Source: Candidatus Uhrbacteria bacterium CG_4_9_14_3_um_filter_41_35 (GTDB taxonomy: Bacteria > Patescibacteriota > Patescibacteriia > UBA9934). Taken from it: 64,000 nucleotides of DNA. Position numbers and translations under genes: made by a program. The DNA lies in assembly GCA_002791275.1 (NCBI GenBank), contig PFWT01000009.1, forward strand, positions 211,357-275,356. Reading direction: 5' to 3'. The notes under the pieces were generated by a model. The model did no database searches. It saw only the letters and a list, made by a program, of their open reading frames with translations, and was not told the origin of the DNA. This document shows positions 27,551 through 51,943 of the stretch, in pieces. Position 1 is the first letter of the stretch. Each line of letters starts with the position of its first letter.

Positions 27551-27590
27551 AATAAAGGACCCCTACACTACGAATAGTGCAGGGGTCACA
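27551..27590 (-). terminator. Rho-independent terminator downstream of the GC-rich lipoprotein gene
   Basis: Hairpin gacccctacact...agtgcaggggtc with a CTTTATTTT tract on the reverse strand. Confidence 0.5.
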
Positions 27591-27594
27591 GCGC

Positions 27595-28605: not shown

Positions 28606-28935
28606 TCGGTTTCAAGATTCTCGGAAATCAGCAGAATTTTGAATTCTGCATTATCCCTTTAAACCCACAATCTAGTACTTTGACTATAGGCTCCAAGCGA
28701 TTTTCGTTATTCTGGGACTTTAATTACTTCTATATTCCCTTTTTATAACGACCTACCATAATAGCATAAAATTGTCTTTCTGTCAAGGTCTTAGCTAAAT
28801 AAATACTCTAATCTTAGCAAAAAAAAGATACTCAGAATCTCTGAACATTTATCACAAACCGCGCAATTTTTACAAAAAAAAGACGCCTCTCATTTGAGAA
28901 GCGTCGAAGTGATGATCCATTGACTGCGCTTCAGC

Positions 28936-29583
28936 CTAATGGATCGGATCACCAAACGCGTAAGCGGGCAGCCCGCTTAGCGTAAAGTCAGTGAGCGCCC
29001 CGTCGGCGCTCCGGTCGTCGAACGGGAGGGAGGACTGTGGAACAATCCTCGCGTGCTCGATTTGAACACTTCCGTCTTCACGGAGGTGTTCAAGAGTGAC
29101 GTCTCCGAGGAGCGAGCGCTCCTCGGAGAGGCAGTGCCGGACGGTGTTACCCGTCCAGCAGAATCCGTTCACGATCACACCCTCGTTGGGTGTGATCGTG
29201 AACGGTGCGCTCGAGCACCGCTTCATCCCGCCCGTTCCGGGCGGAATGTTCTGAGCGACGAGGGCGTAACTGCCCTCGTCGTAGAACGTTGCGCCACCAT
29301 CCAGCTCCCGCTGGGTGATGGCGAAGAGGTAGACGTCCGTCGTCACCTCCTCCCCACCGACGCGCTGCGCGCCGGTGAAGCAGATGTAGGCCGCGCCGGC
29401 GTCAGTGCCGGCGCCGTTGCCGTTGCCGTCGGTGCCGGCGCCGGTGTCGTTGCCGGTGTCCCACGTGCCGGTGGTGCCGTCATTCGGCACCATCACGCAA
29501 CCGCCCATAAGGGCGAAAAGAATCATAAACTTCATTTTAACTCCTTTGGCCAGAAACTGGCCGTTGGTTTTCGGACTACCCAA
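28936..29583 (-). CDS. GC-rich lipoprotein with Gly/Thr/Asp/Asn-rich low-complexity linker (hypothetical)
   Basis: The MKFMILFALMGGC lipobox lies after the first in-frame Met, so the true start is probably around 29538. The T/G/D/N-rich stretch is followed by a globular region. GC3-rich codon usage. Confidence 0.45.
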   Translation of the reverse strand: MGSPKTNGQFLAKGVKMKFMILFALMGGCVMVPNDGTTGTWDTGNDTGAGTDGNGNGAGTDAGAAYICFTGAQRVGGEEVTTDVYLFAITQRELDGGATFYDEGSYALVAQNIPPGTGGMKRCSSAPFTITPNEGVIVNGFCWTGNTVRHCLSEERSLLGDVTLEHLREDGSVQIEHARIVPQSSLPFDDRSADGALTDFTLSGLPAYAFGDPIH

Positions 29584-29616
29584 TACTGCCTATGCAGTTC
29601 ATTGGGGAGTCCGCTT

Positions 29617-29666
29617 GCAGGACTCTTAAAATCTATAAATAATTTTATAAACTTTAAGAGTCCTGC
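29617..29666. promoter_or_regulatory. 16-bp perfect inverted repeat (ttgcaggactcttaaa / tttaagagtcctgcaa) around an AT-rich spacer, upstream of the 28936-29583 gene
   Basis: Seen directly in the sequence. No T-tract follows on either strand, which favours an operator over a terminator. Confidence 0.3.
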
Positions 29667-30000
29667 AAAACAACAGAAGAACTTATCATCAACTATCACC
29701 CTTGTCAATAGCTTAATCTTTTTCAACTCTTCCTTTGGTGACGTGCAACATACATCACTTTTATTTTACCCAGGCATCGTGTTTTTGTTTCAGTCGATAT
29801 AACAACATTTTCAGTGTATCCTGCGTAAATTTGATGTATGTTACCAGTCGTAACAGCACCAAAGAAAGAGTTAATTTTTAATAGAACATTTTCAAAGTTC
29901 TCATCGAACATTAAATTTCTTTAATATTCAGTGAAAAATTTAAAGGTGTGGAGCCGGGAAGAATGATTTCACTCATCTTCCCAGCTCCTAGGAGGAGCGC

Positions 30001-30900
30001 TTACTCGCGATCCGCGTGGCTGTTCCACAGCCACGCGAGGTTAGCACTCAGCTCGAGGCGCGTCACAGGCAGTGCCTGGTGACGCGTCCCCTGCAAGCCG
30101 GCGAAAACGCCAGGCTGCAGGGTGAGCTGAAGCTCGCTCCCGACCGGGAGCGAGTACCAGAGGCCACCGTGGCCTCCGATACTCGCTCCGGTGTAGCTCC
30201 AACCTTTGCCGAGACCGGAGTGGTTACCAACCACTCCGGCGTAAAAGCCGAGGTCATTCGACTCCTGTGACCAGTAGGTCACGGAGTCGAATGACCCTCC
30301 GACGTGGTCGGGGCCGAGCTCAAGGCTCGGGATGAAAAGGTGGCCCACCTTGGCCCCCTCCCATCCCCAGATCACTCCCGTCCGGAGTGATCCTTGGACC
30401 GCTCCGGTGGCGCCGGCGATGGGCTGGCCGAAGCCGGCGCCGAGGCCGGCGCTCCAGCCGGCAACCATCCGTCTGTCATCCACGCGCCCGTTAAGCGCGT
30501 AGATGGCGGCGCGGTTACTTGCCACCCCGTCGCCGAGATTGGCGACGTCGGCCTCGAGCTGACCGATTCGCACCAAAAGTGCGGTGCGCTCAACCATCAA
30601 TTCCTCAAACTGTTCCACGATGTCGTGGAACTCCTGACCAGCATACCGGTCAAGTTTTCCGAGGTACACTCGGGTTTCGTTGAGCTTCCGCTCAACGGCC
30701 CCGAGTTGCGCCCGAACGGCACCGATGTCGGTGCTGTTCGTGACCGAGGTTTGCACCTCCGTCACTTCCTGCGTCGCCGGAGCGACGCAGGGGTTCACAC
30801 AGTCCTCCGGGCCGCCAGCGAAAGCGCTGGTGGCCGGAGCGATTACGATCATTACGAAGGCCATAACGGCCTTCGCGGACTTCCTCATTGTGGCCATCAT
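30001..30900 (-). CDS. GC-rich secreted protein: signal peptide, coiled-coil, Gly/aromatic-rich C-terminal domain (hypothetical)
   Basis: Signal peptide MIVIAPATSAFA, a heptad-like region (LEADVANL...), and a C-terminus with alternating G/W/Y/S β-strand-like segments. The antisense ORFs are noise. Confidence 0.45.
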   Translation of the reverse strand: MMATMRKSAKAVMAFVMIVIAPATSAFAGGPEDCVNPCVAPATQEVTEVQTSVTNSTDIGAVRAQLGAVERKLNETRVYLGKLDRYAGQEFHDIVEQFEELMVERTALLVRIGQLEADVANLGDGVASNRAAIYALNGRVDDRRMVAGWSAGLGAGFGQPIAGATGAVQGSLRTGVIWGWEGAKVGHLFIPSLELGPDHVGGSFDSVTYWSQESNDLGFYAGVVGNHSGLGKGWSYTGASIGGHGGLWYSLPVGSELQLTLQPGVFAGLQGTRHQALPVTRLELSANLAWLWNSHADRE

Positions 30901-31237
30901 GACCTCCTTCTGTTGTTTTTTGGCTACTTTCTGATCTCATCATTATTACCGACTTTAAGAAAAATCGGCAAATGCTAAGACCAATAAGTAACCAAAAAAC
31001 TTTGTGCAATGTCGGCTATTCTGAAGCACGACGACGCAACTTAACACAAGCTAAAGTATTTGTCAATAGTCTCTTAGCAAAATAAAAAACCCACTCGGAA
31101 GGCTCGAGATCTAGTCATAATAAGGAGGAGGTATTACGATTTGACACTCGAGCCATCGAAGCAGGCTTTTCAGTGCTGAGACCTTAGCAAAGCCTCAAAA
31201 ATCTGTCAACGGATTTACATTTTTCAGCAGATTTTTC

Positions 31238-37596: not shown

Positions 37597-37622
37597 ATTC
37601 AGCCGAAAGGCTGATTTTTTGT
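37597..37622 (+). terminator. Rho-independent terminator after rplT
   Basis: Hairpin tcagcc-gaaa-ggctga followed by T7. Confidence 0.7.
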
Positions 37623-37731
37623 TGCTTGTCAGAACCTGTTCTTGACAACTAACTCAATTTTTGTTAGGTTAAGTCGTCATGTTCACATGGCTGCATTTAA
37701 CCGGGTGTATATGCACCCAAAATAGGGAGGG

Positions 37732-38652
37732 TTGATGAAAGAAGAAAACGAATCTGGCCAGGAAGGGCCGGAAATCAAGATGCCGGAAGCCTCGGCGCGT
37801 ATCCCGCGCCGAGGTCCCGACAACAAGGCCGACGACGTCGGCGCCATTGACCCTAGCCGAAACGCTAGGGCTAACCACACCATCGCCTCGGCGATGGCGG
37901 TCGCGGTCTTCGTGATCATGTGTATGCTCGCGATTGCGGGCTTGCTCATGTTCGCTGAGCCCCAGAGCGTGGCCGTGGCTCAGGCAACGGCCACCGAGCC
38001 AGCGACCTCGCCGGTCGCTGACGCGTCAGTGGTCACTTCGGTGACCACTGACGCCTTCGCGGTCTCGGAGATCGAGCCCACGGAGGCGAGCGCTCCGCTC
38101 GTCGCTCCGCGGCCTCGGATCGACGTCCTGGCCTCCGGCCCGAACGAGGCCGGGGTCGAGTACCTGAGCGGCGAGAGCTGGGATCAGCTCTCCCGCCAGT
38201 TCACCATCAGCCGGGAGGACTGCGCCAAGCTCTTTGGCGCAGACTTCGTCTGCAAGCCGGTTGTGCTCAGCATGGCCGCCGTTACCGCGGCCTACGCGGT
38301 AACGGGTGAGCAGCCGGTGCTCGGCGTGAACGACTACGTCGTTTTCGCCGAGCCTGACGAGAACGGAACGCACCAAGCAGTGCTCCGTTCTTGTGCGCTC
38401 GCGGCCATCACTGGCCTCGCTGTGGCCGAGGGGCAACAGTGCCCCTCGGCCACGATCACCTGGCGCCATTATGGCCAGCGAGAGGCCATGAACTTGGCCG
38501 AACGCAACAAGGCGGGCGCTAAGTCCGGGCAGACTTCGACAACGCCGAAGTCTGCCCCGGCGCTCAAGGCCTCACCGAACTTCGGTGAGGCCTTGAGCGT
38601 CCACGAGCGCCGGCTCCAGGCGCTCGAGGCCAAGACCTTACAGGGAAGCTAG
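37732..38652 (+). CDS. GC-rich membrane-anchored Ala/Pro/Thr-rich protein (hypothetical)
   Basis: Basic N-terminus, then a TM helix (MAVAVFVIMCMLAIAGLLMF), then an extracytoplasmic domain. GC3-rich codon usage unlike the flanking rpl genes. The antisense ORFs are noise. Confidence 0.45.
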   Translation: MMKEENESGQEGPEIKMPEASARIPRRGPDNKADDVGAIDPSRNARANHTIASAMAVAVFVIMCMLAIAGLLMFAEPQSVAVAQATATEPATSPVADASVVTSVTTDAFAVSEIEPTEASAPLVAPRPRIDVLASGPNEAGVEYLSGESWDQLSRQFTISREDCAKLFGADFVCKPVVLSMAAVTAAYAVTGEQPVLGVNDYVVFAEPDENGTHQAVLRSCALAAITGLAVAEGQQCPSATITWRHYGQREAMNLAERNKAGAKSGQTSTTPKSAPALKASPNFGEALSVHERRLQALEAKTLQGS

Positions 38653-38674
38653 CAACTGCTAGCTTCCCAAATAA

Positions 38675-38709
38675 CCCCGTGTATCGAAAGGTACCGGGGC
38701 GTTTTTTTT
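38675..38709 (+). terminator. Rho-independent terminator after the GC-rich gene (preceded by a second hairpin at 38644-38667)
   Basis: Hairpin ccccgtgta...taccgggg followed by T8. Confidence 0.7.
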
Positions 38710-38793
38710 GACTAGGATTTAGATCTTTGGTACAGTCTTACATCACGATTAACAAAAAAAATCGTGAATGATCTTTCATGAACAGGAGTCAAA

Positions 38794-40089
38794 ATGTCAA
38801 CTATTCCAAAGTTGGTTGCCGGTTTGCGCGATGCCGCTCAAATCATTTTCGAAAACCTCGACACTGATCGCTTCAACATGATTTTTAACGATCTTGAGAG
38901 TTCGGCAGACACGTTTTCGCTAAGTGACCTAAAAACTAAGCTCCAAATCTTGCGAGCACAGATTAAAACCTTTCCTCTAGACAGAGCAACAAAATTAGAG
39001 CTTTCAAATCAGTTGAAATTACTAGCTGGCAAGCTGGCAAGTAGCCACAGTCTCCTTGAGGAACCGCTCAGAATTCAAAATCTGAACAGTTCTCTAGATT
39101 ATGTCGATCCACCATCGCTATCGGCGATTCAAATCAGAAAGAGACCCGATGAATTTGAAAAGCCCACCGAACACGCACCCATTCGTGTTCCCCGTACTTT
39201 AGCTACGGTAGAAATTAATGAAGACTTAGTGGAAGCTGAAGAGCGATGGCATAATACAGACGAAGTAGAAGTCGCCGAATTCTTCGGTGATCTTCCCCCG
39301 CCCTCGGACGAAGAGCGTCTGCTTCCGCCGGGCTTTACCGAGGATCCGAGTAACTCTTCGCAACAAAAAGCGCTCGAAGCACAAACCCTAGGAGCTTATT
39401 TTGCTGAAGGAGACGCTATGAACAGCTCTCCGAAGAAAAGGAATGAAGATCGAGCACGCGACACTACCCGACTACTTTTGAACTTTTCGCTCCTTGGTTT
39501 AGTGGCAATTATCGCCATCTGTACCGTTCGTATGAGCACTTTTCAAGACACTCTTAGCTACATCCGGGCTCAAAAGCTGGTACATCTATCATCAGAACCA
39601 CGGATCTCACTCACTGAGAGTCTGTCTGAAGTGCCAGTTCTGGTGGCTAACGTAGCGGAGCAGTCGCCTATCGAAACTGAAATCGATGAAACTGTGACAG
39701 CGGTCATTGACTTCATTACAGCTATCGAAGAAGAACCGGCAACGCGTGGAGAGGAGCTAACAAAAACCCTCACCACCGTGGTCGTCTATGTACCTCAACC
39801 AGTTGAACAAGTGCCCCTACTTCAGACCGCTGTCTCTGAACCCGGAGCTCCAACTAAGGTTCGTATCAAGCCTTCGAGCGACGATCAGCCAGTTCGGTGT
39901 GATGGTGAATTTGCCTACAGTAACCTCCTTTGGCAAAACGGTCATTGGTGGGGACTGCGCGACGTCGAGTGCAACAATGGCCTCTACACCATCACGGTTG
40001 GCGCGTACAAGGGCGAAACTATCCGATCGTCCTGCCTAAACGCCGAAACAAACGGCACCCCCTGGTGCCGTTTGATCGAGCGCTTTTAA
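38794..40089 (+). CDS. Hypothetical membrane protein (single TM, Cys-containing C-terminal domain)
   Basis: An internal TM helix (LLLNFSLLGLVAIIAICTV). The C-terminus carries 4 Cys (CDGEF...CNNG...C...C). Intermediate GC content. Confidence 0.4.
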   Translation: MSTIPKLVAGLRDAAQIIFENLDTDRFNMIFNDLESSADTFSLSDLKTKLQILRAQIKTFPLDRATKLELSNQLKLLAGKLASSHSLLEEPLRIQNLNSSLDYVDPPSLSAIQIRKRPDEFEKPTEHAPIRVPRTLATVEINEDLVEAEERWHNTDEVEVAEFFGDLPPPSDEERLLPPGFTEDPSNSSQQKALEAQTLGAYFAEGDAMNSSPKKRNEDRARDTTRLLLNFSLLGLVAIIAICTVRMSTFQDTLSYIRAQKLVHLSSEPRISLTESLSEVPVLVANVAEQSPIETEIDETVTAVIDFITAIEEEPATRGEELTKTLTTVVVYVPQPVEQVPLLQTAVSEPGAPTKVRIKPSSDDQPVRCDGEFAYSNLLWQNGHWWGLRDVECNNGLYTITVGAYKGETIRSSCLNAETNGTPWCRLIERF

Positions 40090-40215
40090 GGCCTCACCCC
40101 TTTGCTAGTTTGCTGGCCGAGGGGATTTTTTTATTAACTTAGCGAATTAAGTTATATTCAACCAGCTATTGCACGATTTTTAATAATCTGATACTCTACC
40201 TGCACGAATTACCAA

Positions 40216-40292
40216 GGACCGGTAGTTCAATTGGTTAGAGCACCGCCCTGTCACGGCGGAAGTTGCGAGTTCGAGTCTCGTCCGGTCCGCCA
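40216..40292 (+). tRNA. tRNA-Asp (anticodon GTC), CCA encoded
   Basis: Cloverleaf with acceptor GGACCGG/CCGGTCC, D-arm TAGTTCAATTGGTTAGAGC, anticodon loop cCTGTCAc and T-arm GCGAGTTCGAGTCTCGT, ending GCCA. Confidence 0.9.
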
Positions 40293-40295
40293 GAA

Positions 40296-40327
40296 AAATG
40301 CCTCAGCGAAAGCTGGGGCTTTTTTTG
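40296..40327 (+). terminator. Rho-independent terminator after tRNA-Asp
   Basis: Hairpin gcctcagc-gaaa-gctggggc with a U·G pair, followed by T7. Confidence 0.5.
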
Positions 40328-40377
40328 TTGAGTTAAGAATGAAATTAATTCAAGATTCAAGACCTGACCCCCTAGTT

Positions 40378-40548
40378 TATTTTCTCTGAAATTAAAAATA
40401 TCCAAGATCGCAATAAAATGATTTATTTTGCACGAATAATAGCAGGATATTCAATCACCGACATCTCTCAACATCTTCAACTACACCGCTCAACCGTAAG
40501 TCGAATATTTAATGGAAGTCACAGGTAACGACTTGACCCCTCTACTTT
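40378..40548 (+). repeat. 171-bp direct repeat R, copy 1 (carries the 3' part of a small HTH gene; truncated copy)
   Basis: Near-identical to 43558-43728, with about 5 mismatches. It holds a 36-codon remnant (40418-40528) of the 58-aa HTH ORF found intact in copy 2. Confidence 0.85.
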
Positions 40549-40771
40549 TAGCTCAACTAACTATCTGTTTAAACATTCTAGTGTAGTTTAGTGATAAGAT
40601 CATTGAGTATATATAATTTTCGCGAACTTTCGCAAAACTAATGAACAGTTGGCGTTGTGTAGCCACACTACAAAGAATAGAATGTAGTTATACAGTCTAT
40701 AAAATATCTATCTCAATTTATTTTATATAGATGTTGCCGTTTAACTTTCAATAATTAACTCTTTAAAACAT

Positions 40772-42562
40772 ATGACAAAGATCAGCAAGATTTCATCAAT
40801 CATTCTGGGAGTTGGACTTGTTCTTGGTATCGGTGCGCCAAGCAGTTCGTTTGCGGCAACAGACCCTGGATTAGGTGCGGCCTCGACCTTTTCAATCATC
40901 GCCCAAACAGCAATTACCAGAACTGGAACCATTGCTAATGATGTGGGCTTAAATAGCACAGGTGCTGGTATCACAGCGCTCACGGACCTAATGGTTGGTG
41001 GGACTATCTACTCTTCGGATGGAGTGGCACCGAGTACCGCTACGCTTGATCCGAGTGTTCAAGCTAACCTTATAACGGCTAACGGTAATATTTCAGGACA
41101 AGGTTCGACTGCAAGCATTGGTCCAGCGCTTGATGGTTTAAGTCTTGTTCCTGGCGTTTATGACATCGGAGCTGGTCGTCTAAACGGTGGCGTGCTTACT
41201 CTAGATGGAGCTGGAGTCTATATTTTAAGAGCCTCGAGCGACCTTATTTCCTCTGGTTCAATTAATTTTATAAACGGAGCAACAGCTTGTGATGTTTTCT
41301 GGCAAGTTAATTCCCTGGCAACTATCAATGGTAGTTCGTTTGCTGGAACGATTATTGCAGGAACAGGTGTTCATTTTGGGCCTAACGTCACTTTAGCGGG
41401 TAATGCGCTAGCGCTCGGTGGTGACGTAACTTTAAAAAATACAACAATTTCTGCACCAGTTTGTACCGCTGTAGTGCCGTCAACATCAGATATTTATAAC
41501 ACAATTACAGTTATTAAAAATGTTATCAACGATAATGGCGGAACATCTACTTTTAATGATTTCCTTCTTTACGTTGGTGGAACACACGTAACTAGTGGTC
41601 AAAGTGTTCCTTTTCAAGCGGGTACTTATGCTGTGACTGAAACAGGTGTATCTGGTTATTCAGCAACATATAGCGGTGATTGTAACGCAAGCGGTATGAT
41701 TCTTCACGGTGGAGCTAGTACTCGTAACCACATTTGTTTTATTACAAATGATGATATTGGAGCACCCGTAGCGATCCCACCGGTACCACCACTTATTGAT
41801 ATCATTAAGGTTCCAAGTCCAATCAATCTCCCAAATGGGCCCGGTCTTGTAACTTATTCTTTCGCACTCACTAATATTGGAACCGTGCCGGTTACAGATA
41901 TTACTGTAATTGACGACTCATGCAATCCGTTGTTCATTTCTGGCGATCTGAATAATAATAGTGCCCTGGATCTTACCGAAACCTGGAGATATTCTTGTTC
42001 AAAGACCCTGACTGAAACCTACACCAACACCGTTGTAGCAACAGGTTGGGCAAATGGAATTAACGTTAGCGATGTTGCAGACGCAATTGTTACGGTTGGC
42101 ATTCCAGTTGTGCCACCAATAATTCACGTAACAAAAGTTCCAAGTCCACTTATACTCTCAGCTGGTGGTGGCACAGTTACGTACACTAATAAAGTAACTA
42201 ACCCAGGTATAGTTGCTTTAAGTAATATTTATCTTGCAGACGATAAGTGCGAACCTGTTGAATATATCTCCGGTGATATTAATAACGATTCAAAACTTGA
42301 TGTAACAGAGACCTGGACTTACACTTGCCAAACAAATCTAACTACAACTACTATGAACACAATCACCGCGAGTGGTGATGCTAATGGATTGACTGCCAGA
42401 GACTTTGCTAGGGCAACTGTTGTAGTAAACGCTGCTGTTCCGAAGTTACCAAACACTGGAATAACTTCTGCAAAATCAGGTAGCTATACGGGTCTTGTAA
42501 CCGTAAGTCTTTTGACACTCGCTACCCTATTCTACTTGGGTCGAAAGCAACAGCTAATTTAG
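40772..42562 (+). CDS. LPXTG-anchored surface protein with N-terminal ice-binding-like (DUF3494) β-helix domain and two DUF11-type repeats
   Basis: Signal peptide. The motif GAASTFSIIAQTAITRTGTIANDVGLNSTGAGITAL matches the DUF3494 start (GaAanFaVLAgstvTnTG.s.i.GdlGvsPG). Two roughly 80-aa repeats (KVPSP.NL..G.G.VTY...TN.G.V.......DD.C.P...SGD.N....LD.TETW.Y.C) are present. The C-terminus has LPNTG, a hydrophobic segment and GRKQQ. Confidence 0.7.
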   Translation: MTKISKISSIILGVGLVLGIGAPSSSFAATDPGLGAASTFSIIAQTAITRTGTIANDVGLNSTGAGITALTDLMVGGTIYSSDGVAPSTATLDPSVQANLITANGNISGQGSTASIGPALDGLSLVPGVYDIGAGRLNGGVLTLDGAGVYILRASSDLISSGSINFINGATACDVFWQVNSLATINGSSFAGTIIAGTGVHFGPNVTLAGNALALGGDVTLKNTTISAPVCTAVVPSTSDIYNTITVIKNVINDNGGTSTFNDFLLYVGGTHVTSGQSVPFQAGTYAVTETGVSGYSATYSGDCNASGMILHGGASTRNHICFITNDDIGAPVAIPPVPPLIDIIKVPSPINLPNGPGLVTYSFALTNIGTVPVTDITVIDDSCNPLFISGDLNNNSALDLTETWRYSCSKTLTETYTNTVVATGWANGINVSDVADAIVTVGIPVVPPIIHVTKVPSPLILSAGGGTVTYTNKVTNPGIVALSNIYLADDKCEPVEYISGDINNDSKLDVTETWTYTCQTNLTTTTMNTITASGDANGLTARDFARATVVVNAAVPKLPNTGITSAKSGSYTGLVTVSLLTLATLFYLGRKQQLI

Positions 42563-42636
42563 TTGCGGTATGTAAGAGTCAGTTTATAAATGCCAGGCAT
42601 AATTTTGCCTGGCATTTAGCTAGATTTTGAAAAAAT

Positions 42637-43266
42637 ATGCGATCAATAATTACACCAAAAAAAGCTACATATATATTTTTCCCCTCAGGTATAATTCTTT
42701 CTGTTGCCCTTTTACTAAATATTATTCCCCAGAATTCTGTGAATAATAATATAAATCCGACCATAGAAAATAACGTAGTAATTTCTGATGTGGTGCCGGT
42801 AGTAAAACAGATGATTAGTATTGGCTCACCCGTAAGACTTGAAATCCCAGCAATTAACATTAATACTAATATTATTTCCGTAGGATTAACTCCGACTGGC
42901 GCAGTTGCTGTTCCCGATAATCCATTCGAAGTAGCCTGGTACAATCTCGGATCTAAGCCGGGAGAGACCGGTAGTGCAGTTATTGATGGTCATTACGGCT
43001 GGATTAATAACGAACCAGCTGTATTTGATGATTTGAATAAATTAAAAACAGGTGACGAAATTTTTGTCGAAGATAAAAACGGTAGAATTATTAATTTTAA
43101 AGTCCGCGAAATAGCTATTTTCAAAAAAGATGATGATGCCGTAAACGTATTTTTATCAAACGACGGCAAGGCGCACCTCAATCTAATCACCTGCACCGGT
43201 GATTGGAATAAATCAGAAAAAACTTTTTCCGAGCGACTTGTAATATTCAGTGATGTTGCTGAATAA
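42637..43266 (+). CDS. Sortase (class E/F-like transpeptidase)
   Basis: N-terminal TM anchor, the LEIPAININ motif, catalytic His in GHYGW, active-site LNLITCTG (TLxTC) and a conserved Arg region. Located immediately downstream of the LPXTG substrate gene. Confidence 0.8.
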   Translation: MRSIITPKKATYIFFPSGIILSVALLLNIIPQNSVNNNINPTIENNVVISDVVPVVKQMISIGSPVRLEIPAININTNIISVGLTPTGAVAVPDNPFEVAWYNLGSKPGETGSAVIDGHYGWINNEPAVFDDLNKLKTGDEIFVEDKNGRIINFKVREIAIFKKDDDAVNVFLSNDGKAHLNLITCTGDWNKSEKTFSERLVIFSDVAE

Positions 43267-43531
43267 AAGCTAATTTGAATATCTCCGTTCACATATTACA
43301 TATCCAAAAAAAAAGAGCATTTTTGCATCGGGGTCAAGTCGTTACCTGTGACTTTTTTTGATATAATCAGTTTATGAGCCGAGCCCTCCGATTTTAGACA
43401 AGCTGGATGAGCAATGACCTTTTAGCAACATTGCAGAAGGAACAATATTAGGAAGTCCCCAATTTATTTCTTGGGTTTGGGAAAACTTTAATGAAAAAGA
43501 AGAAATCACTGAAATTAAAAAATCTGACAGG

Positions 43532-43708
43532 ATGATCAGCAGACCGAGTTTGGAAGATATTTTCTCTGAAATTAAAAATATCCAAGATCGCAATAAAATG
43601 ATTTATTTTGCACGAATAATAGCAGGGTATTCAATCACCGATATCTCTCAACATCTTCAACTACACCGCTCAACCGTAAGTCGAATATTTAATAGAAGTC
43701 ACAGGTAA
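43532..43708 (+). CDS. Small HTH-domain protein (58 aa; transposase/recombinase-type or Xis-like helix-turn-helix)
   Basis: MISRPSLEDIFSEIKNIQDRNKMIYFARIIAGYSITDISQHLQLHRSTVSRIFNRSHR. The helix-turn-helix lies in IAGYSITDISQHLQLHRSTVSRI. The gene falls below the ORF-track length cutoff. Confidence 0.4.
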   Translation: MISRPSLEDIFSEIKNIQDRNKMIYFARIIAGYSITDISQHLQLHRSTVSRIFNRSHR

Positions 43709-43728
43709 CGACTTGACCCCTTTACTTT
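43558..43728 (+). repeat. 171-bp direct repeat R, copy 2
   Basis: Near-identical to 40378-40548 and directly abuts the partial tRNA-Asp copy. Confidence 0.85.
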
Positions 43729-43794
43729 ACAATTGGTTAGAGCATTGTTTTGTTATGGTGGAAGTTGCGAGTTCGAGTCTCGTCCGATCCGCCA
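43729..43794 (+). pseudogene. Partial tRNA-Asp copy (D-loop plus T-arm/acceptor 3' half; lacks 5' acceptor and anticodon arm), att-like remnant
   Basis: caattggttagagca...gaagttgcgagttcgagtctcgtccgatccgcca matches the 3' 34 nt of the tRNA-Asp at 40216-40292 with one mismatch. Confidence 0.65.
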
Positions 43795-43846
43795 GGACTA
43801 TTTCTTATAGTGCAACCCGAGTGGCTTGCAAAAGATAGGAACGAGT

Positions 43847-43887
43847 CTAAGCCACAAAATCGCCTTAGGGGCGATTTTGTGGCTTAG
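43847..43887. repeat. Perfect 18-bp inverted repeat (ctaagccacaaaatcgcc-ttagg-ggcgattttgtggcttag)
   Basis: Directly visible, about 50 bp right of the partial tRNA. No flanking T-tract. Confidence 0.7.
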
Positions 43888-43964
43888 GGTAAGTGTAAGT
43901 ACCTTTGGAAGTGAACTGGCTTGTTTTGGTTGTTAAATTATAATCTATCCTCTGATATTTTTTT

Positions 43965-44010
43965 TAATAAAAAAAAGACCCCGTCACCGTCGTTACGGTT
44001 CAGGGGTCTA
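43965..44010 (-). terminator. Rho-independent terminator downstream of the 44027-44704 gene
   Basis: Hairpin gacccc-gtcaccgtcgttacggttca-ggggtc, followed on the reverse strand by T8. Confidence 0.6.
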
Positions 44011-44026
44011 AGCTGTTCAGTCTCGG

Positions 44027-44704
44027 TCAGTAGACCTGGAGCTTCGAAGCTGAAGGCACAAAAATACCTGATAGCAACATTTGTCCATGACCTAGAACAG
44101 CGTAGGTTGAACCGGACCAGTGCTCCCCAAGAATACTCGAGTAGGAGTTGATCCAGTTGTCGTAGGCCGTCGTCTTACCGTCGATCGTGGTCTTGTTCGC
44201 GGTCGGAAAATGGAATCGATGATCACAACCACCCCACTCACAGGCCCCGGTGGACTGCCGGTCCATCCACGTGCCAGACGTACAGCCATAACCGCAGCTT
44301 CCGCCGTAAAGTGAGGTCTGGTAAGCTGGGCTCCAAACAGTGCAAGTGCTCTGACCGGGCAGGCATGACCGGTACAGGTCACCCTCTAACGCATCATAAA
44401 CCACCTGTACGTCAAGATCGAACGGGGCGATACCTTGCTTAATGGCCTCCTCAACCACGACGTTCGCGATATAGGTGTTGTCGACGTCCGCCCCCTGGAG
44501 GCGCATAAGCTCATCCATGAAGGAGCGGAGCTCGTTCGGGTCAAGGTTTCGAACCTCGTCGTTGATATCGACAGCCTCCTCGTCGGTGACCTCGAGCTCG
44601 AGATAGCGCCAGGAGAGATCCAACACATAAGTGTTGTTGCTGGTCTCGATGTTGGATTCGATCTCATCATTAATAGTTGTCTGCACACTGCAAGCGGTCA
44701 CCAA
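44027..44704 (-). CDS. Hypothetical secreted/lipoprotein with GC-rich Cys/Gly/Trp-rich C-terminal half
   Basis: Extending the frame upstream gives KNYLFLSLALLVTAC, a lipobox, but no ATG. The start is therefore uncertain (TTG or GTG). The C-terminus has 8 Cys and many Trp and Gly. The 44100-44400 portion is conspicuously GC-rich. Confidence 0.4.
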   Translation of the reverse strand: MVTACSVQTTINDEIESNIETSNNTYVLDLSWRYLELEVTDEEAVDINDEVRNLDPNELRSFMDELMRLQGADVDNTYIANVVVEEAIKQGIAPFDLDVQVVYDALEGDLYRSCLPGQSTCTVWSPAYQTSLYGGSCGYGCTSGTWMDRQSTGACEWGGCDHRFHFPTANKTTIDGKTTAYDNWINSYSSILGEHWSGSTYAVLGHGQMLLSGIFVPSASKLQVY

Positions 44705-44817
44705 AAGAGCCAGGGAGAGAAAAAGATAGTTTTTATTAAAGAGAGTTTCCTTATTTATTCAAGCACAGTTTATCTATGCGCGGGTAAACATAACAATAAC
44801 TGCTCATCGAGTCAAGC

Positions 44818-45186
44818 TTGAACAGAATATCTTGTGATGATAGTGTGATCATACTAAGAATAAATTATATTAAAAAACAAACATACGCCATTTTTGCGAT
44901 ATTGGGTTCAGCTATTTGGTTATTTAGCGAAATTTTTATCCTTCTAACAATCAATGAGGGAATCGAAGTATCAAACCTAGCCTTAATAGGAATTGTATAT
45001 TTTTTTGGAATGATTTCGTTATATATTGGCGCCCCCTTGAGCTTTCTAGTAGGGAAAATTGTTTCTATATTCGGAGCCAACCCTTACGCGGTTTACCCAA
45101 CTCTTTACCCGCTACTAAATACTCTCTCTGTTTTGATTTTAGTTTTTGTAGGGTTAAAAATCTATAGTCGATACAAAAAATCATAG
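44818..45186 (+). CDS. Hypothetical small membrane protein (3-4 TM)
   Basis: Hydrophobicity only. Confidence 0.35.
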   Translation: MNRISCDDSVIILRINYIKKQTYAIFAILGSAIWLFSEIFILLTINEGIEVSNLALIGIVYFFGMISLYIGAPLSFLVGKIVSIFGANPYAVYPTLYPLLNTLSVLILVFVGLKIYSRYKKS

Positions 45187-45392
45187 AAAGTAATAAAATC
45201 GCCTATATACTAGGTGAGCGAGGTGAGATTGACATAGTAGTTCTATTTACTAGAATTAAAGATGAAGATCCCGTTTGGTACCAGAATTGAATATAATCTT
45301 TAGTTCTTTCTACATTTTTACCGTCCTTTTTTTTCGGATGAGCCCTATTCTTATTCTGATAAAGTCGTTGACTTTCAGGTCTCTTCATTTGC

Positions 45393-46351: not shown

Positions 46352-49300
46352 CTATTTTACAGTTATCTCTAGCGCGTCAGAAAAGCTCTGAATGCTAGGA
46401 ACTTTCATTGAATTAATCATGATCGGTTCAACTGTATAAGTTCCCGGATTTGTAACTCTAACGTAATACTTGAAGTAATCACGGCTAGCGTTGTAGCTAC
46501 TAGAATCTGCAGTGAACTTAATTCTTTGACCATCAATTTGGTAAGGATATCGAATTGCTCCCTTTGTTGTATTATCACTATATCTATATGGTCTTGAGAT
46601 AATGCTCATACCGCTTGGAAGAACGTCGGTGATCTGATATTCACCTTCAACGGCATTTTCGATGAATTTAGGGTAAACTCGTACCTCAACAATTCCCCCT
46701 TCTTTAAAGGCATTTGTCTCTACCCCGTCCACGAAATACTTCCTATCTACATCCACATGACTATCATCTATTGAAACATCTTTTAGCGGGACTTCATAGT
46801 GACTTGTTACACCAAGATTTCCTTTAATGTCTAGTAACCGTATTGTGCGTCGCTGTTCCGGAGAAACGCTAATCGTGTGGGTTGAGCCTTTTTCAAGCTC
46901 TACGGTTTCTGTTTTACCATTTACCTCAACCTTAAAGCTCACTGCTCCAGGAACTAGAGTTGGTAGAGTTTTTCCAATAAAGATCGCTCTTTCTAGACTA
47001 ACAAGTCGCTCGTTTGATCTTGCAGTTGCAACATAATTCCATAAAGAATCTTTATGCTCAGCCTGTAATCCAGCTGCCAGCATTGAAGCTAGTGCCGAAG
47101 CTTCAAGAGTCTTATCTTTGTCATCCTCAACGTTAATTCGGATATAGTCTTCATAAGCCTCGCCATTTTCTGCCATGACTTCAGCATATAATGTTCTTGC
47201 ATTTTCTTTATCACCAATTTCCTCTAGCGCAAGCGCAATATAAAGTTTTTCTGTAACTGAAAGATCTTTGATTGCAGCCATATTTTGGATCTTCACAAGC
47301 ACTGGCTCGTTAAGTCCTGCTAATCCCCAAAGTGCCGTAGCAATTTCATCCGTATTCGATTTTTTATTTGCTACAACGTTATAGAAATAGCTCGCAAGCG
47401 CTTCTTTATCAACGTATTTTGCCCCAGCTACTGCTACTTTGGCGCTTAGCACAAGTTCACTGTCAGAATATGGTAGAAGTGAAATACCGCCGCCCTGTTG
47501 ATACAGTGACATATCTACTACATCACCAGTTTTAGGTTCTGCGAAATATGAATCAAGAAGATCCTGCCCGATTTGTCTGCTTAATTTTTGATCAACTCTA
47601 TCTCCATATCCCCATTTTAGTGAACGTAAACTGTTGTACAAACGTCCCTGATTTTCGTCAGAAAAGACAACTGTTGTGCGACCATCTTCCGCTCCGTCTA
47701 CAATCAGATCCTCACTACCAACAGCGAACTTTTGAATAGTTTCCATTAATCTTGATTCTACAACTGAAACTCTGAGTCGTAATGCGTCATTATAATCATA
47801 AGTTGAAGCTCCAAATGTAATACTATGCTCACCAAGTTTATCCGTAAGACTTGGTAGATCAAAGTATGTTGATTTGAAAGCTTTTCCATCCTTCGTCTCT
47901 TCAAGACCCAATGAATCTGACAACACGTTAAACGAGACAGTATCACCAGTTAAAAGTGCCTTACCAAAAGCTCTTACAGCAAAACTTGGCTTATCTGTGG
48001 TTAGATATTCGTCTGCAATAACCACATTAGCAAATATTGGTTTGGTAACTGGTAATTTAGTTACATCAAAACCTGCTTTGATGTCGCTTGAAATTGCCTG
48101 AGTTGTAATTCGCCAGGATGTAATATTGTCTGGCAAAGTGAAAGTAATTTCACCATTTCCGTTTTGATCTGTTTCCAAAGTTTTGAAGACAGCTGCATCC
48201 AAGAATGTTTCGCGAACACTTCCATCACCACCCTTGTCGTTATGAACATAAATATCGTTTGCAAGATAAGTGTGATATGTCTCCACATGGAAGTTGTATA
48301 CGTAAACCGGTTCATGTTTCCATTCGATTGAATCAATTCTCACCGGAAATCCTTCAGAGTTGATTAAAATATCTCCAACTTCAGCGTTTCCAATCACTTG
48401 CCAACCGCCGTTCATATAAACTTTGTGAACCGGAGTTACTTTAAGTGATCCGTTGATAATCATATATTCAGAAACATAGTGCTCAAAAGTTTCAAGAACT
48501 CGGCCTGGAACTAGTGTATTTGATTTTTCACTAAGTCTTGTGAGAATCATATCGCCAGCCTCTATATTCTCAATATTTTTCTTTGAGCCGTCTGCCATCG
48601 TGATCTGTGTTTCTCCTAAGAAGCAACCACCACCCTCGGCTCCACCCGGAATCGTTAATAATCCAGAATACTTATGAGAGAATGAATCGATTATTTCACC
48701 TCCTGGAACTGAAGCGTAAAGATTATCTAAGGTATTAACAGATTCGTTTGAAACCGCGTAATAAGCTTCGTCGACTACATTTACGTTTACGTTAGCTTTT
48801 TTCCCCGCGCCATTTTTATCTACAACTTTTACATTCAGTTTAACCTCTTCGCCCGGTAAATATTCTATTTTTTCAGTTTTTACCTGAATATTTAGTTCGC
48901 TATCCGCAGTATCTAGTTTCGCACCGCTGTAATTGAATTGGTTGCCTGCAATTTTGTATGTTTGTCCATCAAAATATACAGCCTTTAGCACAACGTTAGG
49001 TGCGTGTTTTTGTTCGAAGGTAAACGAATAATCTGCCGAAGAATCAACTTCGTAGGCCCGCAAACCTCTTTGAAGCTGATAGTATAAGAATTTATTTTCA
49101 CCATCTTGAACTCGTTCCTCATTATTTTGTAGCTCAAACTTTGCAAGATCGCCTAGTTTATAGGTCATATCTTTATCAAAGTTTTTTAAGAAGTAATAAT
49201 CACTACTGTATGCAGATCGATATTCAATTGGTGCGTATGCATAAGATGTAGCTTTGTTCATTCTGCCCTCGGCATCGACTACACTGATATTTACTTTGTA

Positions 49301-51943
49301 ACTTTTATCCTGTGTAATTGGGAAATTGTAGTGGTATTCACCGTTACTATCCGAGGTACCACTGAAATTTCCGATCTTATTTTCAATTTTATTATATCTA
49401 TAGGTTTTTCTAACAATTTTATTGATAAAATCGTAATATTCACCAGTTTCAACCCTATTGTATGTGATTTCGATAATGTCTCCTTCAATCCGCAAATCAG
49501 AAACAAGTTCGCCTTCACCACCTGCAAGATCAACGGACCTAACTGTCGCGTTAACTAAAGCAGTTCCGTTATTCCTGATTACCTCCTGATCAATGACGGC
49601 GTTTGCATTGTAAACATTTACGCGTGAGTATTCATTAATTTCTGCAACTTCTGAATTAACTGGACTAACAGATAGAGTCACACTGTTAACCAGGGGACAG
49701 TATGAGCTAGTTAAATTACAGGTTGAGATAACAGGAGTGTATGAAACACTCATCTTTCCGAACTCATCTGTTTTCAGTACCTTATCTACTGCTGATTTTG
49801 AAGTTCCAGAAACACGAACTTTAAATTCTGTATCTGGTAGTGGTGTTCCCTCAAAAAAGTTTGCAGAAATATCAAACTTTACATCTTCGCCAGCAAACAT
49901 AGCAGCCTTCGCTGGTTGAATATCGATACTATAAGCGGGTTTCGTGTAAGTTTGAACGTTGATATAACTACTCTGGATCAAATTGTCACCAACGAAAAAT
50001 TGAAGGTCGTAGTAGCCAGGTGTTGTATTCTCGAGATTAATCGAACCTTCGAAAATTCCATTATTCAAGATTATTTCCTGTTCCTGCAAAACAACATAAT
50101 TGTTATAAAAATCCCTATAACCATTACTTACGAGTTTCACGTGAACTGAATCTGTAGCTTTTAAATCACGATTCTTTACAAATCCCCAATATTTTATTTG
50201 ATCGCCAGGGTGGTACAATGATCTGTCGGTATAAATATACTTCCAATAATCAGATGCAGAGGTCGATGTATTATTATAGTAATAACCATTAAAACGGTTA
50301 AGTACCATAATTAATTCATCATTTCCAGCTTTGATGCTCATGATTTTTTTAAACGCATCTTGGCTGTTAGCATCGATAAGCTTTTCAGTTGCAAAAGTTG
50401 CGATACCAGTACTATTTGTGGTTGCTGTTGTATTATTTTCAGTGAAAGTAAGCTTCGCAGAGACCGTTGGTTGATCTGATTTTACATTATTTACCCAAAC
50501 AAGTGTGTCGGTTTCAGTTACCGTTGCGTAAGCTGAAAGATCCGTAACCTGAATAAATGCTTGTTTATCAAATCGGCTCGCTGACTTATTTTCGAGGACG
50601 TAAAAACCTTTTGGTAAAGACTCTGGCAAGACGAGAAAATGAATCCCGTTATTTACTTCACTAATTGTTTGTATTTCAAGAGTTGCGGTGAATATGCTAG
50701 ACATTTTTGATGTATCTACCAAAAACGCAGATTTTTGGTAGACTGACCAGTCTGGCACTGACATTTTGTCTGAAAGATCTGAAATAAAATCAGTTGAATT
50801 GTTGTATGCGAAAATTTCAACTTCAACTTTTTTTGCTTCTTCGCCGTACGCATAAACTGGGATTGCAATAGTATCTTCAGTTGAATATTGAAGTTCATTT
50901 TCAATAAATGAGACCTTCTGGCGATCATGTTGATTGGCATTATGGGCGCTTGATAATGTTTCAAATTGAAACACGTAATCTTCACCTAGAGTATTTTGAG
51001 AACCAACAACATGTGAAGCTCCGCTAACCGTAACGGTGTACACTGTCCCTTCTGCCAATATTTGAGGTACAAAAACAACTGTTTGACCATGTGTTTCAAA
51101 CCGACCATTCACTTTTGGTGAAATTGTAATGTGATTTTCTACATCTTCAACATTTTCGTGACTAAAAGTAACTTCAATCCCAGTTGAAAGTGGCACATTA
51201 CTTGAGTTCTTTCCTGGTAGCGTGTGTTTTACTTTAAAACTGTCCTTCACTTGAAAAGCCCAAGAATAATCTCTTTCAAAAGAAGTTCCATTTTCTGCAA
51301 TAAATGATGCTGAAATTTCAATATTATAAGTAGTATTGTTTTCAAGTGTCTTAATCGGTGTAACTTTAAAGGTGTGATCGTCGATTACCTCAAAAGTAAA
51401 TTCAGCTCGTGGGCTAAGCGAAATATTTTCTTTTAGTATTTCTGAATCCAAAGCCCCTTTGCTGGTGATAATAAAGCTGGTGTCCGCCTCGACTCCGGTT
51501 GAATCACCGCTTACTGGTTCAATTTCGAAATTATCCTGCGCGTAAGCAGGATCAAGAATCAAACGAGAAAACTCGCCAAATGGGCTAGATGGATTATTCC
51601 TTACTCCTGGCCAGTATTGAAATGTTGTGGCCACAATTGCAACGATTAACAAGCTAGAAACACCAACAACAACTCGCTGGTGGTGAAAACTTGCGAAAAA
51701 CGACATTATTTGCTTATTCATACTTTTTTCTGTTGAAGATGCTCTTTCGGTTCGTCTTGCCCGCAATATGTCCTGTTCTAGCTTTTCTTTGAAGTTAGAA
51801 GATGCGAGATGCGAATCCTGAGCATGCGTTATTAATTTATCTCTTACATTCAATAACGCACAAAGCTCAGGATCATTACAATCCTGCATTTGTTCCTTTG
51901 CCTTTAGAGCTTTTTCAAGCTTTTTTGCTTTTTTATTAAACAT
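46352..51943 (-). CDS. Giant (1863 aa) anti-sigma-factor-like membrane protein with extracytoplasmic Ig/MG-domain array, Hint/BIL domain, alpha-2-macroglobulin domain and thioester-less TED-like domain
   Basis: An N-terminal roughly 110-aa cytoplasmic segment (C-x5-C) precedes a TM helix (VVVGVSSLLIVAIVATTF). Many β-rich repeats follow. The Hint domain runs GGG|CFLGETQI...VYNFHVETYHTYLANDIYVHN. The A2M signature is RETFLDAAVFKTLETDQNGNGEITFTLPDNITSWRITTQAISS (cf. FPETWLW...FTLPDSITTWR). The TED-like region (LYQQGGGISL, LWGLAGL) has GYGD where the thioester CGEQ is expected. The start overlaps the ECF sigma gene stop by 8 nt. Confidence 0.7.
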   Translation of the reverse strand: MFNKKAKKLEKALKAKEQMQDCNDPELCALLNVRDKLITHAQDSHLASSNFKEKLEQDILRARRTERASSTEKSMNKQIMSFFASFHHQRVVVGVSSLLIVAIVATTFQYWPGVRNNPSSPFGEFSRLILDPAYAQDNFEIEPVSGDSTGVEADTSFIITSKGALDSEILKENISLSPRAEFTFEVIDDHTFKVTPIKTLENNTTYNIEISASFIAENGTSFERDYSWAFQVKDSFKVKHTLPGKNSSNVPLSTGIEVTFSHENVEDVENHITISPKVNGRFETHGQTVVFVPQILAEGTVYTVTVSGASHVVGSQNTLGEDYVFQFETLSSAHNANQHDRQKVSFIENELQYSTEDTIAIPVYAYGEEAKKVEVEIFAYNNSTDFISDLSDKMSVPDWSVYQKSAFLVDTSKMSSIFTATLEIQTISEVNNGIHFLVLPESLPKGFYVLENKSASRFDKQAFIQVTDLSAYATVTETDTLVWVNNVKSDQPTVSAKLTFTENNTTATTNSTGIATFATEKLIDANSQDAFKKIMSIKAGNDELIMVLNRFNGYYYNNTSTSASDYWKYIYTDRSLYHPGDQIKYWGFVKNRDLKATDSVHVKLVSNGYRDFYNNYVVLQEQEIILNNGIFEGSINLENTTPGYYDLQFFVGDNLIQSSYINVQTYTKPAYSIDIQPAKAAMFAGEDVKFDISANFFEGTPLPDTEFKVRVSGTSKSAVDKVLKTDEFGKMSVSYTPVISTCNLTSSYCPLVNSVTLSVSPVNSEVAEINEYSRVNVYNANAVIDQEVIRNNGTALVNATVRSVDLAGGEGELVSDLRIEGDIIEITYNRVETGEYYDFINKIVRKTYRYNKIENKIGNFSGTSDSNGEYHYNFPITQDKSYKVNISVVDAEGRMNKATSYAYAPIEYRSAYSSDYYFLKNFDKDMTYKLGDLAKFELQNNEERVQDGENKFLYYQLQRGLRAYEVDSSADYSFTFEQKHAPNVVLKAVYFDGQTYKIAGNQFNYSGAKLDTADSELNIQVKTEKIEYLPGEEVKLNVKVVDKNGAGKKANVNVNVVDEAYYAVSNESVNTLDNLYASVPGGEIIDSFSHKYSGLLTIPGGAEGGGCFLGETQITMADGSKKNIENIEAGDMILTRLSEKSNTLVPGRVLETFEHYVSEYMIINGSLKVTPVHKVYMNGGWQVIGNAEVGDILINSEGFPVRIDSIEWKHEPVYVYNFHVETYHTYLANDIYVHNDKGGDGSVRETFLDAAVFKTLETDQNGNGEITFTLPDNITSWRITTQAISSDIKAGFDVTKLPVTKPIFANVVIADEYLTTDKPSFAVRAFGKALLTGDTVSFNVLSDSLGLEETKDGKAFKSTYFDLPSLTDKLGEHSITFGASTYDYNDALRLRVSVVESRLMETIQKFAVGSEDLIVDGAEDGRTTVVFSDENQGRLYNSLRSLKWGYGDRVDQKLSRQIGQDLLDSYFAEPKTGDVVDMSLYQQGGGISLLPYSDSELVLSAKVAVAGAKYVDKEALASYFYNVVANKKSNTDEIATALWGLAGLNEPVLVKIQNMAAIKDLSVTEKLYIALALEEIGDKENARTLYAEVMAENGEAYEDYIRINVEDDKDKTLEASALASMLAAGLQAEHKDSLWNYVATARSNERLVSLERAIFIGKTLPTLVPGAVSFKVEVNGKTETVELEKGSTHTISVSPEQRRTIRLLDIKGNLGVTSHYEVPLKDVSIDDSHVDVDRKYFVDGVETNAFKEGGIVEVRVYPKFIENAVEGEYQITDVLPSGMSIISRPYRYSDNTTKGAIRYPYQIDGQRIKFTADSSSYNASRDYFKYYVRVTNPGTYTVEPIMINSMKVPSIQSFSDALEITVK
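48240..48625 (-). other. Hint (Hedgehog/intein-like) / bacterial intein-like (BIL) domain embedded in the giant protein
   Basis: An N-terminal Cys follows GGG (CFLGET). C-terminal block HTYLANDIYVHN is followed by Asp rather than Cys, Ser or Thr. This pattern favours a BIL-type domain over a canonical intein. Confidence 0.6.

Follow-up and report, generated by a model that had tools for sequence, protein, structure and literature searches.

TIRtron debris and a partial tRNA-Asp copy flanking a sortase–substrate pair in a Candidatus Uhrbacteria genome

How did a sortase gene and the gene for its surface-protein substrate come to lie between an intact tRNA-Asp gene and a partial direct copy of that gene? 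The question is raised by a segment of ~3.5 kb (hereafter the islet) in the groundwater Candidate Phyla Radiation (CPR) genome Candidatus Uhrbacteria bacterium CG_4_9_14_3_um_filter_41_35, which we studied within a 64-kb stretch of DNA (the window, whose own coordinates are used throughout; features lie on the forward strand unless a minus sign is given). An initial annotation, made from the sequence, had explained the arrangement as the footprint of integration at a tRNA gene, with two 171-bp direct repeats and the tRNA copy as attachment (att) sites, a small helix-turn-helix (HTH) gene inside, and a mobile cell-surface display module as cargo. Our analysis suggests a more layered history: the apparent att repeat and the HTH regulator are re-annotated here as debris of a little-studied class of elements, the TIRtrons and their TIRYT transposases, and the islet as a whole may be the fixed remnant of an insertion into the tRNA-Asp gene.

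The two direct repeats, R1 (40378–40548) and R2 (43558–43728), were recovered by a repeat finder and aligned over 171 nt with 4 mismatches (98% identity), as had been described, and the HTH open reading frame (ORF; 43532–43708) indeed has its 3′ part within R2. A further copy of the R end, 25–30 nt long and missed by the initial annotation, lies inverted at 43330–43359, just past the sortase stop codon, and forms the left terminal inverted repeat (TIR) of an internally deleted mini-TIRtron, E2 (43330–43728), whose right TIR (43691–43720) overlaps the stop codon and whose right 171 nt are R2. The two TIRs are complementary at 25/25 positions (43330–43354 and 43696–43720; GGGGTCAAGTCGTTACCTGTGAC) and start with GGGGTCAA, the 8th base of which (A) departs from the class consensus GGGGWSAS. 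Between them are a TATAAT box (43362–43367), a start codon 44 nt from the TIR with six further codons (43374–43397; MSRALRF*, cf. MSRPLRI...), and the C-terminal HTH part of a TIRYT transposase (43418–43708) that includes the HTH ORF. The left end of E2 aligns base by base (TIR, TATAAT, ATG) with two of the relatives described below, L031 and L037, and a tblastn search matched the coding part to residues 187–280 of the L031 protein (59% identity, 2e-34); E2 has kept codons 1–7 and ~187–280 of a ~280-aa TIRYT and has lost ~180 codons. The 58-aa HTH ORF itself scored 27.1 bits against HTH_23 (cut-off 24.6), its reading frame is open upstream to 43418, an exact look-up found it not on record, and it is called as a gene in no assembly; rather than a regulator of an island, it is the C-terminal remnant of a transposase.

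R1 corresponds to the final 171 nt of a second TIRtron copy, running from TIRYT codons ~234–280 (tblastn to the L031 transposase) through the stop codon and the right TIR (40516–40540) to 8 more nt; R1 and E2, remnants of one TIRtron in the same orientation, stand on either side of the cargo operon. The 25-mer of the R end occurs three times in the window against 0 expected, and its core, GACYTGACCCC, four times against 0.01 expected, all within the islet. The fourth core (40361–40371), also overlooked before, lies just 5′ of R1 and is part of m1 (40347–40371; AATTCAAGATTCAAGACCTGACCCC), a solo TIR that belongs to a second TIRtron subtype and aligns with the right TIRs of L035 and L039 (AATTCCAGATTCCAGACCTGACCCC) and of L033; R1 starts 6–8 nt after the C-run of m1. 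In the rest of the 64-kb window, outside 40347–43720, there were no TIR copies, making four in all within 3.4 kb, and neither a Y1 catalytic domain nor a full-length TIRYT is encoded within the 64 kb. Because R shares homology with TIRYT genes over their 3′ end and right TIR, it is a transposon end and not an att feature. Alignment identifies the repeats, the HTH ORF, the inverted copy (43330–43359) and the fourth core (40361–40371) as TIRtron pieces, apparently the remains of class members now without a functional catalytic domain, and the islet does seem to hold a mobility-gene relic, in the form of the TIRYT fragment. Two other interpretations of these pieces were rejected: the window TIRs do not fold and so are not REP (repetitive extragenic palindromic) hairpins, and E2 is not a simple insertion into a complete tRNA gene, as the DNA left of 43330 lacks a 5′ tRNA fragment.

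We identified the class through relatives of E2. A search with its 96-aa translation among 5.8 billion proteins returned a sole homolog, P0001 (55% identity), itself truncated, and the alignment of the two, used as query against a set with one genome for each species, returned ten loci, seven of them in Candidatus Uhrbacteria. Seven of the ten hold open frames of 279–289 aa that start M(S/A/T/V)RPLR(I/V)(E/K/Q)Y(P/S)GA(L/V)YHV and contain HYHLL (RPLRIEYPGALYHV...HYHLL); the closest, that of L031, matched Pfam Y1_Tnp at 39.8 bits (cut-off 23) and the NCBIfam model of REP-associated tyrosine transposases, NF047646, at 85 bits (cut-off 80). All seven full-length genes have perfect TIRs of 22–28 nt starting GGGGTCAGGTC / GGGGTCAG (GGGGTCARGTC type), the left one 42–69 nt 5′ of the ATG in six of them (687 nt in L036) and followed in several by a TATAAT-like box, the right one ending 14–65 nt past the stop codon. 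The C-terminal HTH region is conserved across L031–L040, and alone it matched 1273 representative clusters at E-values of 1e-3 or less.

These properties correspond to the TIRYT/TIRtron class, for which Di Nocera et al. 2013 (PMC3733652) give the TIR consensus GGGGWSAS, and to TnpA-Y1 subclass 2.1 of Quentin et al. 2018 (PMC6006769), described there with a C-terminal extension resembling HTH_23, HTH_28 and Bac_DnaA_C; the two are the same class. As in the descriptions of TIRtrons and TIRYT in these reports, the relatives' proteins are RAYT-like Y1/HUH transposases of ~280 aa with an HTH_23-like C-terminal extension, their genes are bounded by 22–28-nt TIRs whose start, GGGGTCAG, fits the consensus, the right TIR overlaps or follows the stop codon, and TIRs occur also solo and as dimers. 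In contrast to the elements described there, the window holds relics only (a mini-element and a 171-nt end) with the catalytic domain deleted, its TIR start GGGGTCAA is off the consensus at the last base, and one end abuts a tRNA fragment. The host here is a CPR bacterium (Uhrbacteria), a lineage of which we saw no mention in the treatments of these elements in PMC3733652 and PMC6006769. Both kinds of component, the TIRtron and the tRNA-flanked islet, are already known, and what is new is their instance in a CPR lineage. We know of no association of the TIRtron class with integration at tRNA genes. The wider resemblance is to REPtrons (RAYT-REPIN) and IS200/IS605, which share the HUH Y1 superfamily and a gene bracketed by inverted cognate repeats; unlike in those systems, the window TIRs have no hairpin fold and no GTAG tag, and there are four copies within 3.4 kb.

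The relatives also showed that the class is common in Uhrbacteria and that derivatives reduced to the HTH part recur. Another Uhrbacteria locus, L040 (5974–6290), is a mini-TIRtron that keeps two TIRs of different subtypes and the C-terminal HTH part only; it and E2 are two independent mini-TIRtrons in which the transposase is retained from ~ILGSPQF onward, and such recurrent forms may be non-autonomous elements or retained HTH proteins. Head-to-head TIR dimers, which resemble REPIN hairpins, adjoin the TIRYT genes of L036 (4942–5016 and 6477–6550) and L038 (1367–1411), the latter followed by T9 so that it would serve as an intrinsic terminator. At the locus of P0001 (L021, 2141–3250) a tRNA-Asn and a 5′-truncated TIRYT share one orientation, with the tRNA ~500 nt upstream and a SET-domain gene in the interval; a tRNA repeat was not found at L021.

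We turn now to the tRNA itself. ARAGORN called a single tRNA in the 64 kb, a tRNA-Asp (anticodon GTC, CCA encoded) at 40216–40292, in agreement with the initial annotation and with Rfam (RF00005, 66.5 bits). Immediately 3′ of it the terminator scan placed an intrinsic terminator (40300–40326) with an 8-bp stem, GCCTCAGC/GCTGGGGC, and then T7. The gene upstream encodes a 431-aa protein with a single homolog, P0003 (60% identity), on a 2.4-kb contig (L022, SRR22388162) of the sole relative found, and there too the gene is followed by a matching promoter and a tRNA-Asp; the tRNA-Asp site 3′ of the 431-aa gene is therefore ancestral. The L022 contig ends inside its tRNA-Asp, at the anticodon loop (2330–2365), which could reflect low coverage or a branch in the assembly graph caused by a repeat or strain variation.

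The 3′ copy of the tRNA reported previously is real, although its coordinates had been given one base off (43729–43794). By repeat finder and blastn-short, this copy, tRNA′ (43730–43795), is a direct copy of positions 13–78 of tRNA-Asp, identical at 57 of 66 positions, and its 3′ 36 nt on their own match tRNA-Asp with an E-value of 2e-13. The homology stops 1 nt beyond the encoded CCA, and its 5′ limit is 9 nt past the CCCC of the right TIR of E2. tRNA′ is not called as a tRNA by ARAGORN or Rfam, the scan found no terminator behind it, unlike the intact gene, and a search across the window for additional tRNA-Asp fragments, such as tandem islands might leave, found none. The differences between tRNA-Asp and tRNA′, on which the initial annotation did not remark, are far from random. 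Eight of the nine substitutions are C→T, all within 43745–43759 (p ~5e-7 under uniform placement), where each of the 8 C's that the anticodon stem-loop once had is now T and all five G-C pairs of the former stem are G.T; there is no G→A in this stretch, and the other 12 C's of the copy are all unchanged. With the cluster taken as one event, the divergence of tRNA′ from tRNA-Asp is ~2%, equal to that between R1 and R2. The cluster is a strand-coordinated change; no gene-conversion donor for the altered anticodon arm was found in the window, and we ruled out that tRNA′ derives from another tRNA (the altered anticodon, GTT, would read Asn), because its T-arm and acceptor are identical to those of tRNA-Asp at 35 of 36 positions and its anticodon stem would be all G.U.

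Taking the two sets of evidence together, we read the islet as DNA that was once inserted into the tRNA-Asp gene and is now a fixed relic, with TIRtron debris layered on top, a tentative account that we place a little under an even chance. A circular unit equivalent to 40228–43729 would have recombined with the 3′ part of the tRNA-Asp gene, restoring a functional tRNA at the left and pushing the old 3′ part, now tRNA′, to the right, and the TIRtron copies would afterwards have decayed through internal and 5′ deletions. The recombinase was most likely a tyrosine integrase, now lost or acting in trans, though insertion and agent together make a distinctly more tentative claim; TIRYT itself would be a less likely agent. 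The tRNA/tRNA′ pair is a plausible integration scar, in the layout that insertion into a tRNA gene classically leaves behind and that the initial annotation had recognized. As in the tRNA islands of tyrosine integrases (e.g., P4-like elements), a few kb of accessory-type cargo separate an intact tRNA from a direct repeat of the tRNA's 3′ part.

Several observations weigh against this account, some of which also set the islet apart from such islands. It has no integrase or excisionase, and Pfam matches within it are confined to the Ice_binding protein, the sortase and the HTH fragment; as the initial annotation had noted, no integrase is left inside, and with every base of 40293–43795 assigned to the terminator, TIRtron pieces, the two genes or short spacers (223, 74 and 63 nt) there is no room for one. 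The canonical terminator stands behind the intact tRNA and none behind tRNA′, and the tRNA plus terminator thus look like a native arrangement. That the 5′ limit of tRNA′ falls within 9 nt of a TIRtron end is an unexplained coincidence under an integrase model, which does not predict the C→T cluster either; unlike such islands, the islet has an identity block that begins in the D-arm right at a transposon end, and a repeat that is heavily mutated in the anticodon arm only. A 66-nt identity block that starts in the D-arm exceeds most integrase identity blocks. The cargo is native-like in composition, with a GC content at third codon positions (GC3) of 0.29–0.30 compared to 0.29–0.33 for core genes (0.29 for an alpha-2-macroglobulin-like gene and 0.33 for L20), and the GC content of the islet is 0.393 compared to 0.416 for the window. 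Finally, no presence/absence polymorphism was found among ~20 near-identical contigs from >10 samples (JGI, ENA, NCBI, the last represented by Candidatus Uhrbacteria bacterium CG_4_10_14_0_2_um_filter_41, GCA_002795965.1), which are ~100% identical, with at most one mismatch, over the covered part of 38700–45300.

A search for an empty site had been proposed as a check, and insertion models predict its junction as ...GAGTCTCGTCCGGTCCGCCAG|GACTATTTCTTATAG. A search of metagenome_contigs with the exact 24-mer CGTCCGGTCCGCCAGGACTATTTC gave 0 matches, a result that also counts against insertion but carries little weight, because the same collection failed to return this population's own sortase locus. 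The circle junction would be the same under integrase and Y1 models, ...GACTTGACCCCTTTACTTTA|CAATTGGTTAGAGCACCGCCCTGTCAC..., then the terminator at 40300–40326, with the boundary at the TIRtron end. Neither the 3′ part of the tRNA nor the mutated tRNA′ was found as a phage attachment site (attP) on viral contigs (0 matches), and the sortase, the LPXTG protein and the TIRYT had no match on viral contigs. The LPXTG protein had no match among phage records, sortases on plasmids (annotated as class F) were merely 34–40% identical to that of the islet, and for the sortase metagenome contigs gave mostly soil matches of 33–36% and no close relative. The initial annotation's mobile display module holds up as an intact sortase/LPNTG pair but is not demonstrably mobile, as the contigs are invariant, GC3 is native, and the cargo has no close relatives in the collections against which each gene was run. 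Nothing now in the islet is able to move it, and it is invariant across the sampled population.

The alternative that survives best, although we consider it unlikely, is that the islet was never an island, with tRNA-Asp, its terminator, the LPXTG gene and the sortase gene forming an ancestral resident operon whose spacers were colonized by TIRtrons. The native-like GC3, the terminator directly behind the intact tRNA, an intact sortase/LPXTG pair that is the only one in the 64 kb, the invariance across all contigs compared, and the lack of cargo relatives in viral contigs, of LPXTG-protein relatives in phages and of any but distant sortases on plasmids all suit it, and the account of the class in PMC3733652 notes that TIR- and REP-type repeats cluster and that they lie behind terminators. 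tRNA′ would then be what remains of a second tRNA-Asp disrupted by insertion of a TIRtron or a composite, or a short ectopic duplication that arose in the course of repair associated with TIRtrons. As paralogous tRNA genes share the tRNA only, homology would be expected to stop at the 3′ end, as it does. Against this, the first version needs a second tRNA-Asp in a very small genome and a later deletion ending exactly at m1; the second needs an ad hoc duplication of 66 nt with both borders at functional boundaries. Nor is there a 5′ tRNA fragment to the left of E2.

Slightly less probable, to our minds, is that the islet is the cargo of a TIRYT transposon, a unit of 40228–43729 that a Y1 (HUH) TIRYT, supplied in trans, excised and inserted. 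The unit would end on the right with the right TIR of E2, and its left end would be cleaved in the D-arm of the tRNA after GGTAGTT (position 12); it would carry tRNA positions 13–77 and the native terminator, and on entering a naive tRNA-Asp gene 3′ of this position it would restore the gene and displace the old 3′ part to the right. What draws attention to this model is the spacing of the junctions. Counted from the CCCC of the TIR, tRNA′ begins at 9 nt and the R1/R2 homology ends at 8 nt, and R1 starts 6–8 nt after m1; three junctions at one offset suggest a fixed cleavage point outside the TIR. Cleavage at a set distance from the recognized end is a property of IS200/IS605-type enzymes, and the fixed offset recalls the subterminal cleavage of their 'peel-and-paste' transposition. 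Given the shared offset, R2|tRNA′ looks as a right-end-to-left-end circle junction would be expected to look. The model also accounts for the absence of an integrase and for the tRNA-type terminator behind the intact tRNA, it fits the position of the cargo between two same-orientation copies of one TIRtron, and a single-stranded DNA intermediate could explain strand-specific C→T damage. The fuller version, in which TIRYT mobilizes the cargo unit with its left end in the tRNA and restores the gene and the C→T hypermutation is a scar of that intermediate, we regard as more doubtful still.

Weighing on the other side, the repeated unit in L036 ends at GGGG/CCCC without the 8-nt extension, and the ~8-nt offset may therefore be specific to a subtype or due to chance. 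The other ten TIRtrons adjoin no tRNA or tRNA fragment, apart from the tRNA-Asn ~500 nt upstream in L021; the 64 kb hold no full-length TIRYT; and by inspection the left-end site in the tRNA has no clear similarity to TIRtron left ends. We know of no precedent for a tRNA-restoring insertion by a Y1 transposase, which counts against the model. The mobility of TIRtrons and the activity of TIRYT are themselves given as undemonstrated in the discussion of the class in PMC3733652. If the abutment of TIRtron end and tRNA fragment were nevertheless a product of the chemistry, it would represent a new, integrase-independent route to tRNA-linked islands, and TIRYT-made islands would bear on the movement of surface-display modules in CPR bacteria. 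The literal att reading, in which the 171-bp repeats and the tRNA copy are attL/attR of one element and the HTH gene is its regulator or excisionase, draws on direct repeats near both ends and the weak HTH_23 matches but is very improbable, since R is homologous to TIRYT 3′ ends with a right TIR in genomes without a tRNA context, there are also a third copy, which is inverted, and a solo TIR, the ORF is a fragment of a ~280-aa transposase without start context that is called in no assembly, and the R copies are not symmetric att arms, R1 lying 85 nt from the tRNA and R2 abutting tRNA′.

The cargo itself agreed with what had been proposed for it once hidden Markov models were run. The surface protein (40772–42562; 596 aa) has a signal peptide, an Ice_binding (DUF3494) domain (90.7 bits), a prealbumin-like region, DUF7507/DUF11-like repeats (DUF7507, 40 bits; SpaA_2, 25.3 bits) and, at its C-terminus, LPNTG followed by a hydrophobic transmembrane stretch and the basic tail GRKQQLI, which scored just under the cut-off of the LPXTG_anchor model (15.0 compared to 15.9); it is the sole LPXTG-type C-terminus among the ORFs of the window. 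A 13-bp hairpin resembling an attenuator or terminator (42587–42618; inverted repeat, terminator scan) separates it from the sortase gene (42637–43266; 209 aa; PF04203, 86.6 bits), whose translation shows the expected residues in DGHYG (His), LITCTG (Cys of TLITC) and RLVIF (Arg). The pair resembles class F-like sortases with an adjacent substrate in its sortase fold with His, Cys (TLxTC) and Arg, in the substrate gene immediately upstream, and in the signal peptide, LPNTG, transmembrane segment and basic tail of the substrate. While class F is the closest match, the sortase scored 123.5 bits against the class F model NF033748, under its cut-off of 166, and the nearest plasmid-borne class F sortases are only 34–40% identical. 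Based on these families, the surface protein would be exported by the Sec pathway, cleaved by the sortase at LPNT|G and joined to the cell wall.

To the right of tRNA′, and beginning 52 nt past it, lies the 18-bp perfect palindrome of the initial annotation (43847–43887; repeat finder, folding), which is single-copy in the window, has a 5-nt loop and folds at −22 kcal/mol (z-score −10) with a T-tract on neither strand; it could once have been the 3′ structure of a tRNA, or could be a site of protein binding. An Rfam match to IS128 at 43841–44002 was spurious (26 bits compared to a cut-off of 80). The next gene encodes a 225-aa protein (44027–44704, −) with a GC3 of 0.66 and without an ortholog in the relatives; its homologs, only 49–50% identical (L023–L030), lie in prophage-like regions with large serine recombinases, ParB, a terminase-like gene and N6/N4 methyltransferases. 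On account of this GC3 and these homologs, the DNA right of tRNA′ looks acquired, which fits a tRNA hotspot. The minus-strand terminator of the 225-aa gene (43976–44012; GACCCC...GGGGTC and T8) contains GTAACGAC, and the short strings that it has in common with the TIR are probably due to chance.

More broadly, the window, with a GC content of 41.6%, has patches of 55–69% GC at 27501–31000, 37601–38700 and 44001–44700. Each patch coincides with an ORF whose product is secreted or resembles a lipoprotein and is often Cys-rich, for example 27595–28605 (−), with a (GTDA)n repeat, 28936–29583 (−), 30001–30900 (−), 37732–38652 (+; GC3 0.81) and 44027–44704 (−), and the patches look either horizontally acquired or subject to an unusual compositional constraint. 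Farther downstream, 46352–51943 (−) encodes an 1863-aa alpha-2-macroglobulin/MG2-like protein with a Hint/intein-like insert, for which there are precomputed PT-HINT and Intein_splicing matches and CFLGE...VHN in the translation.

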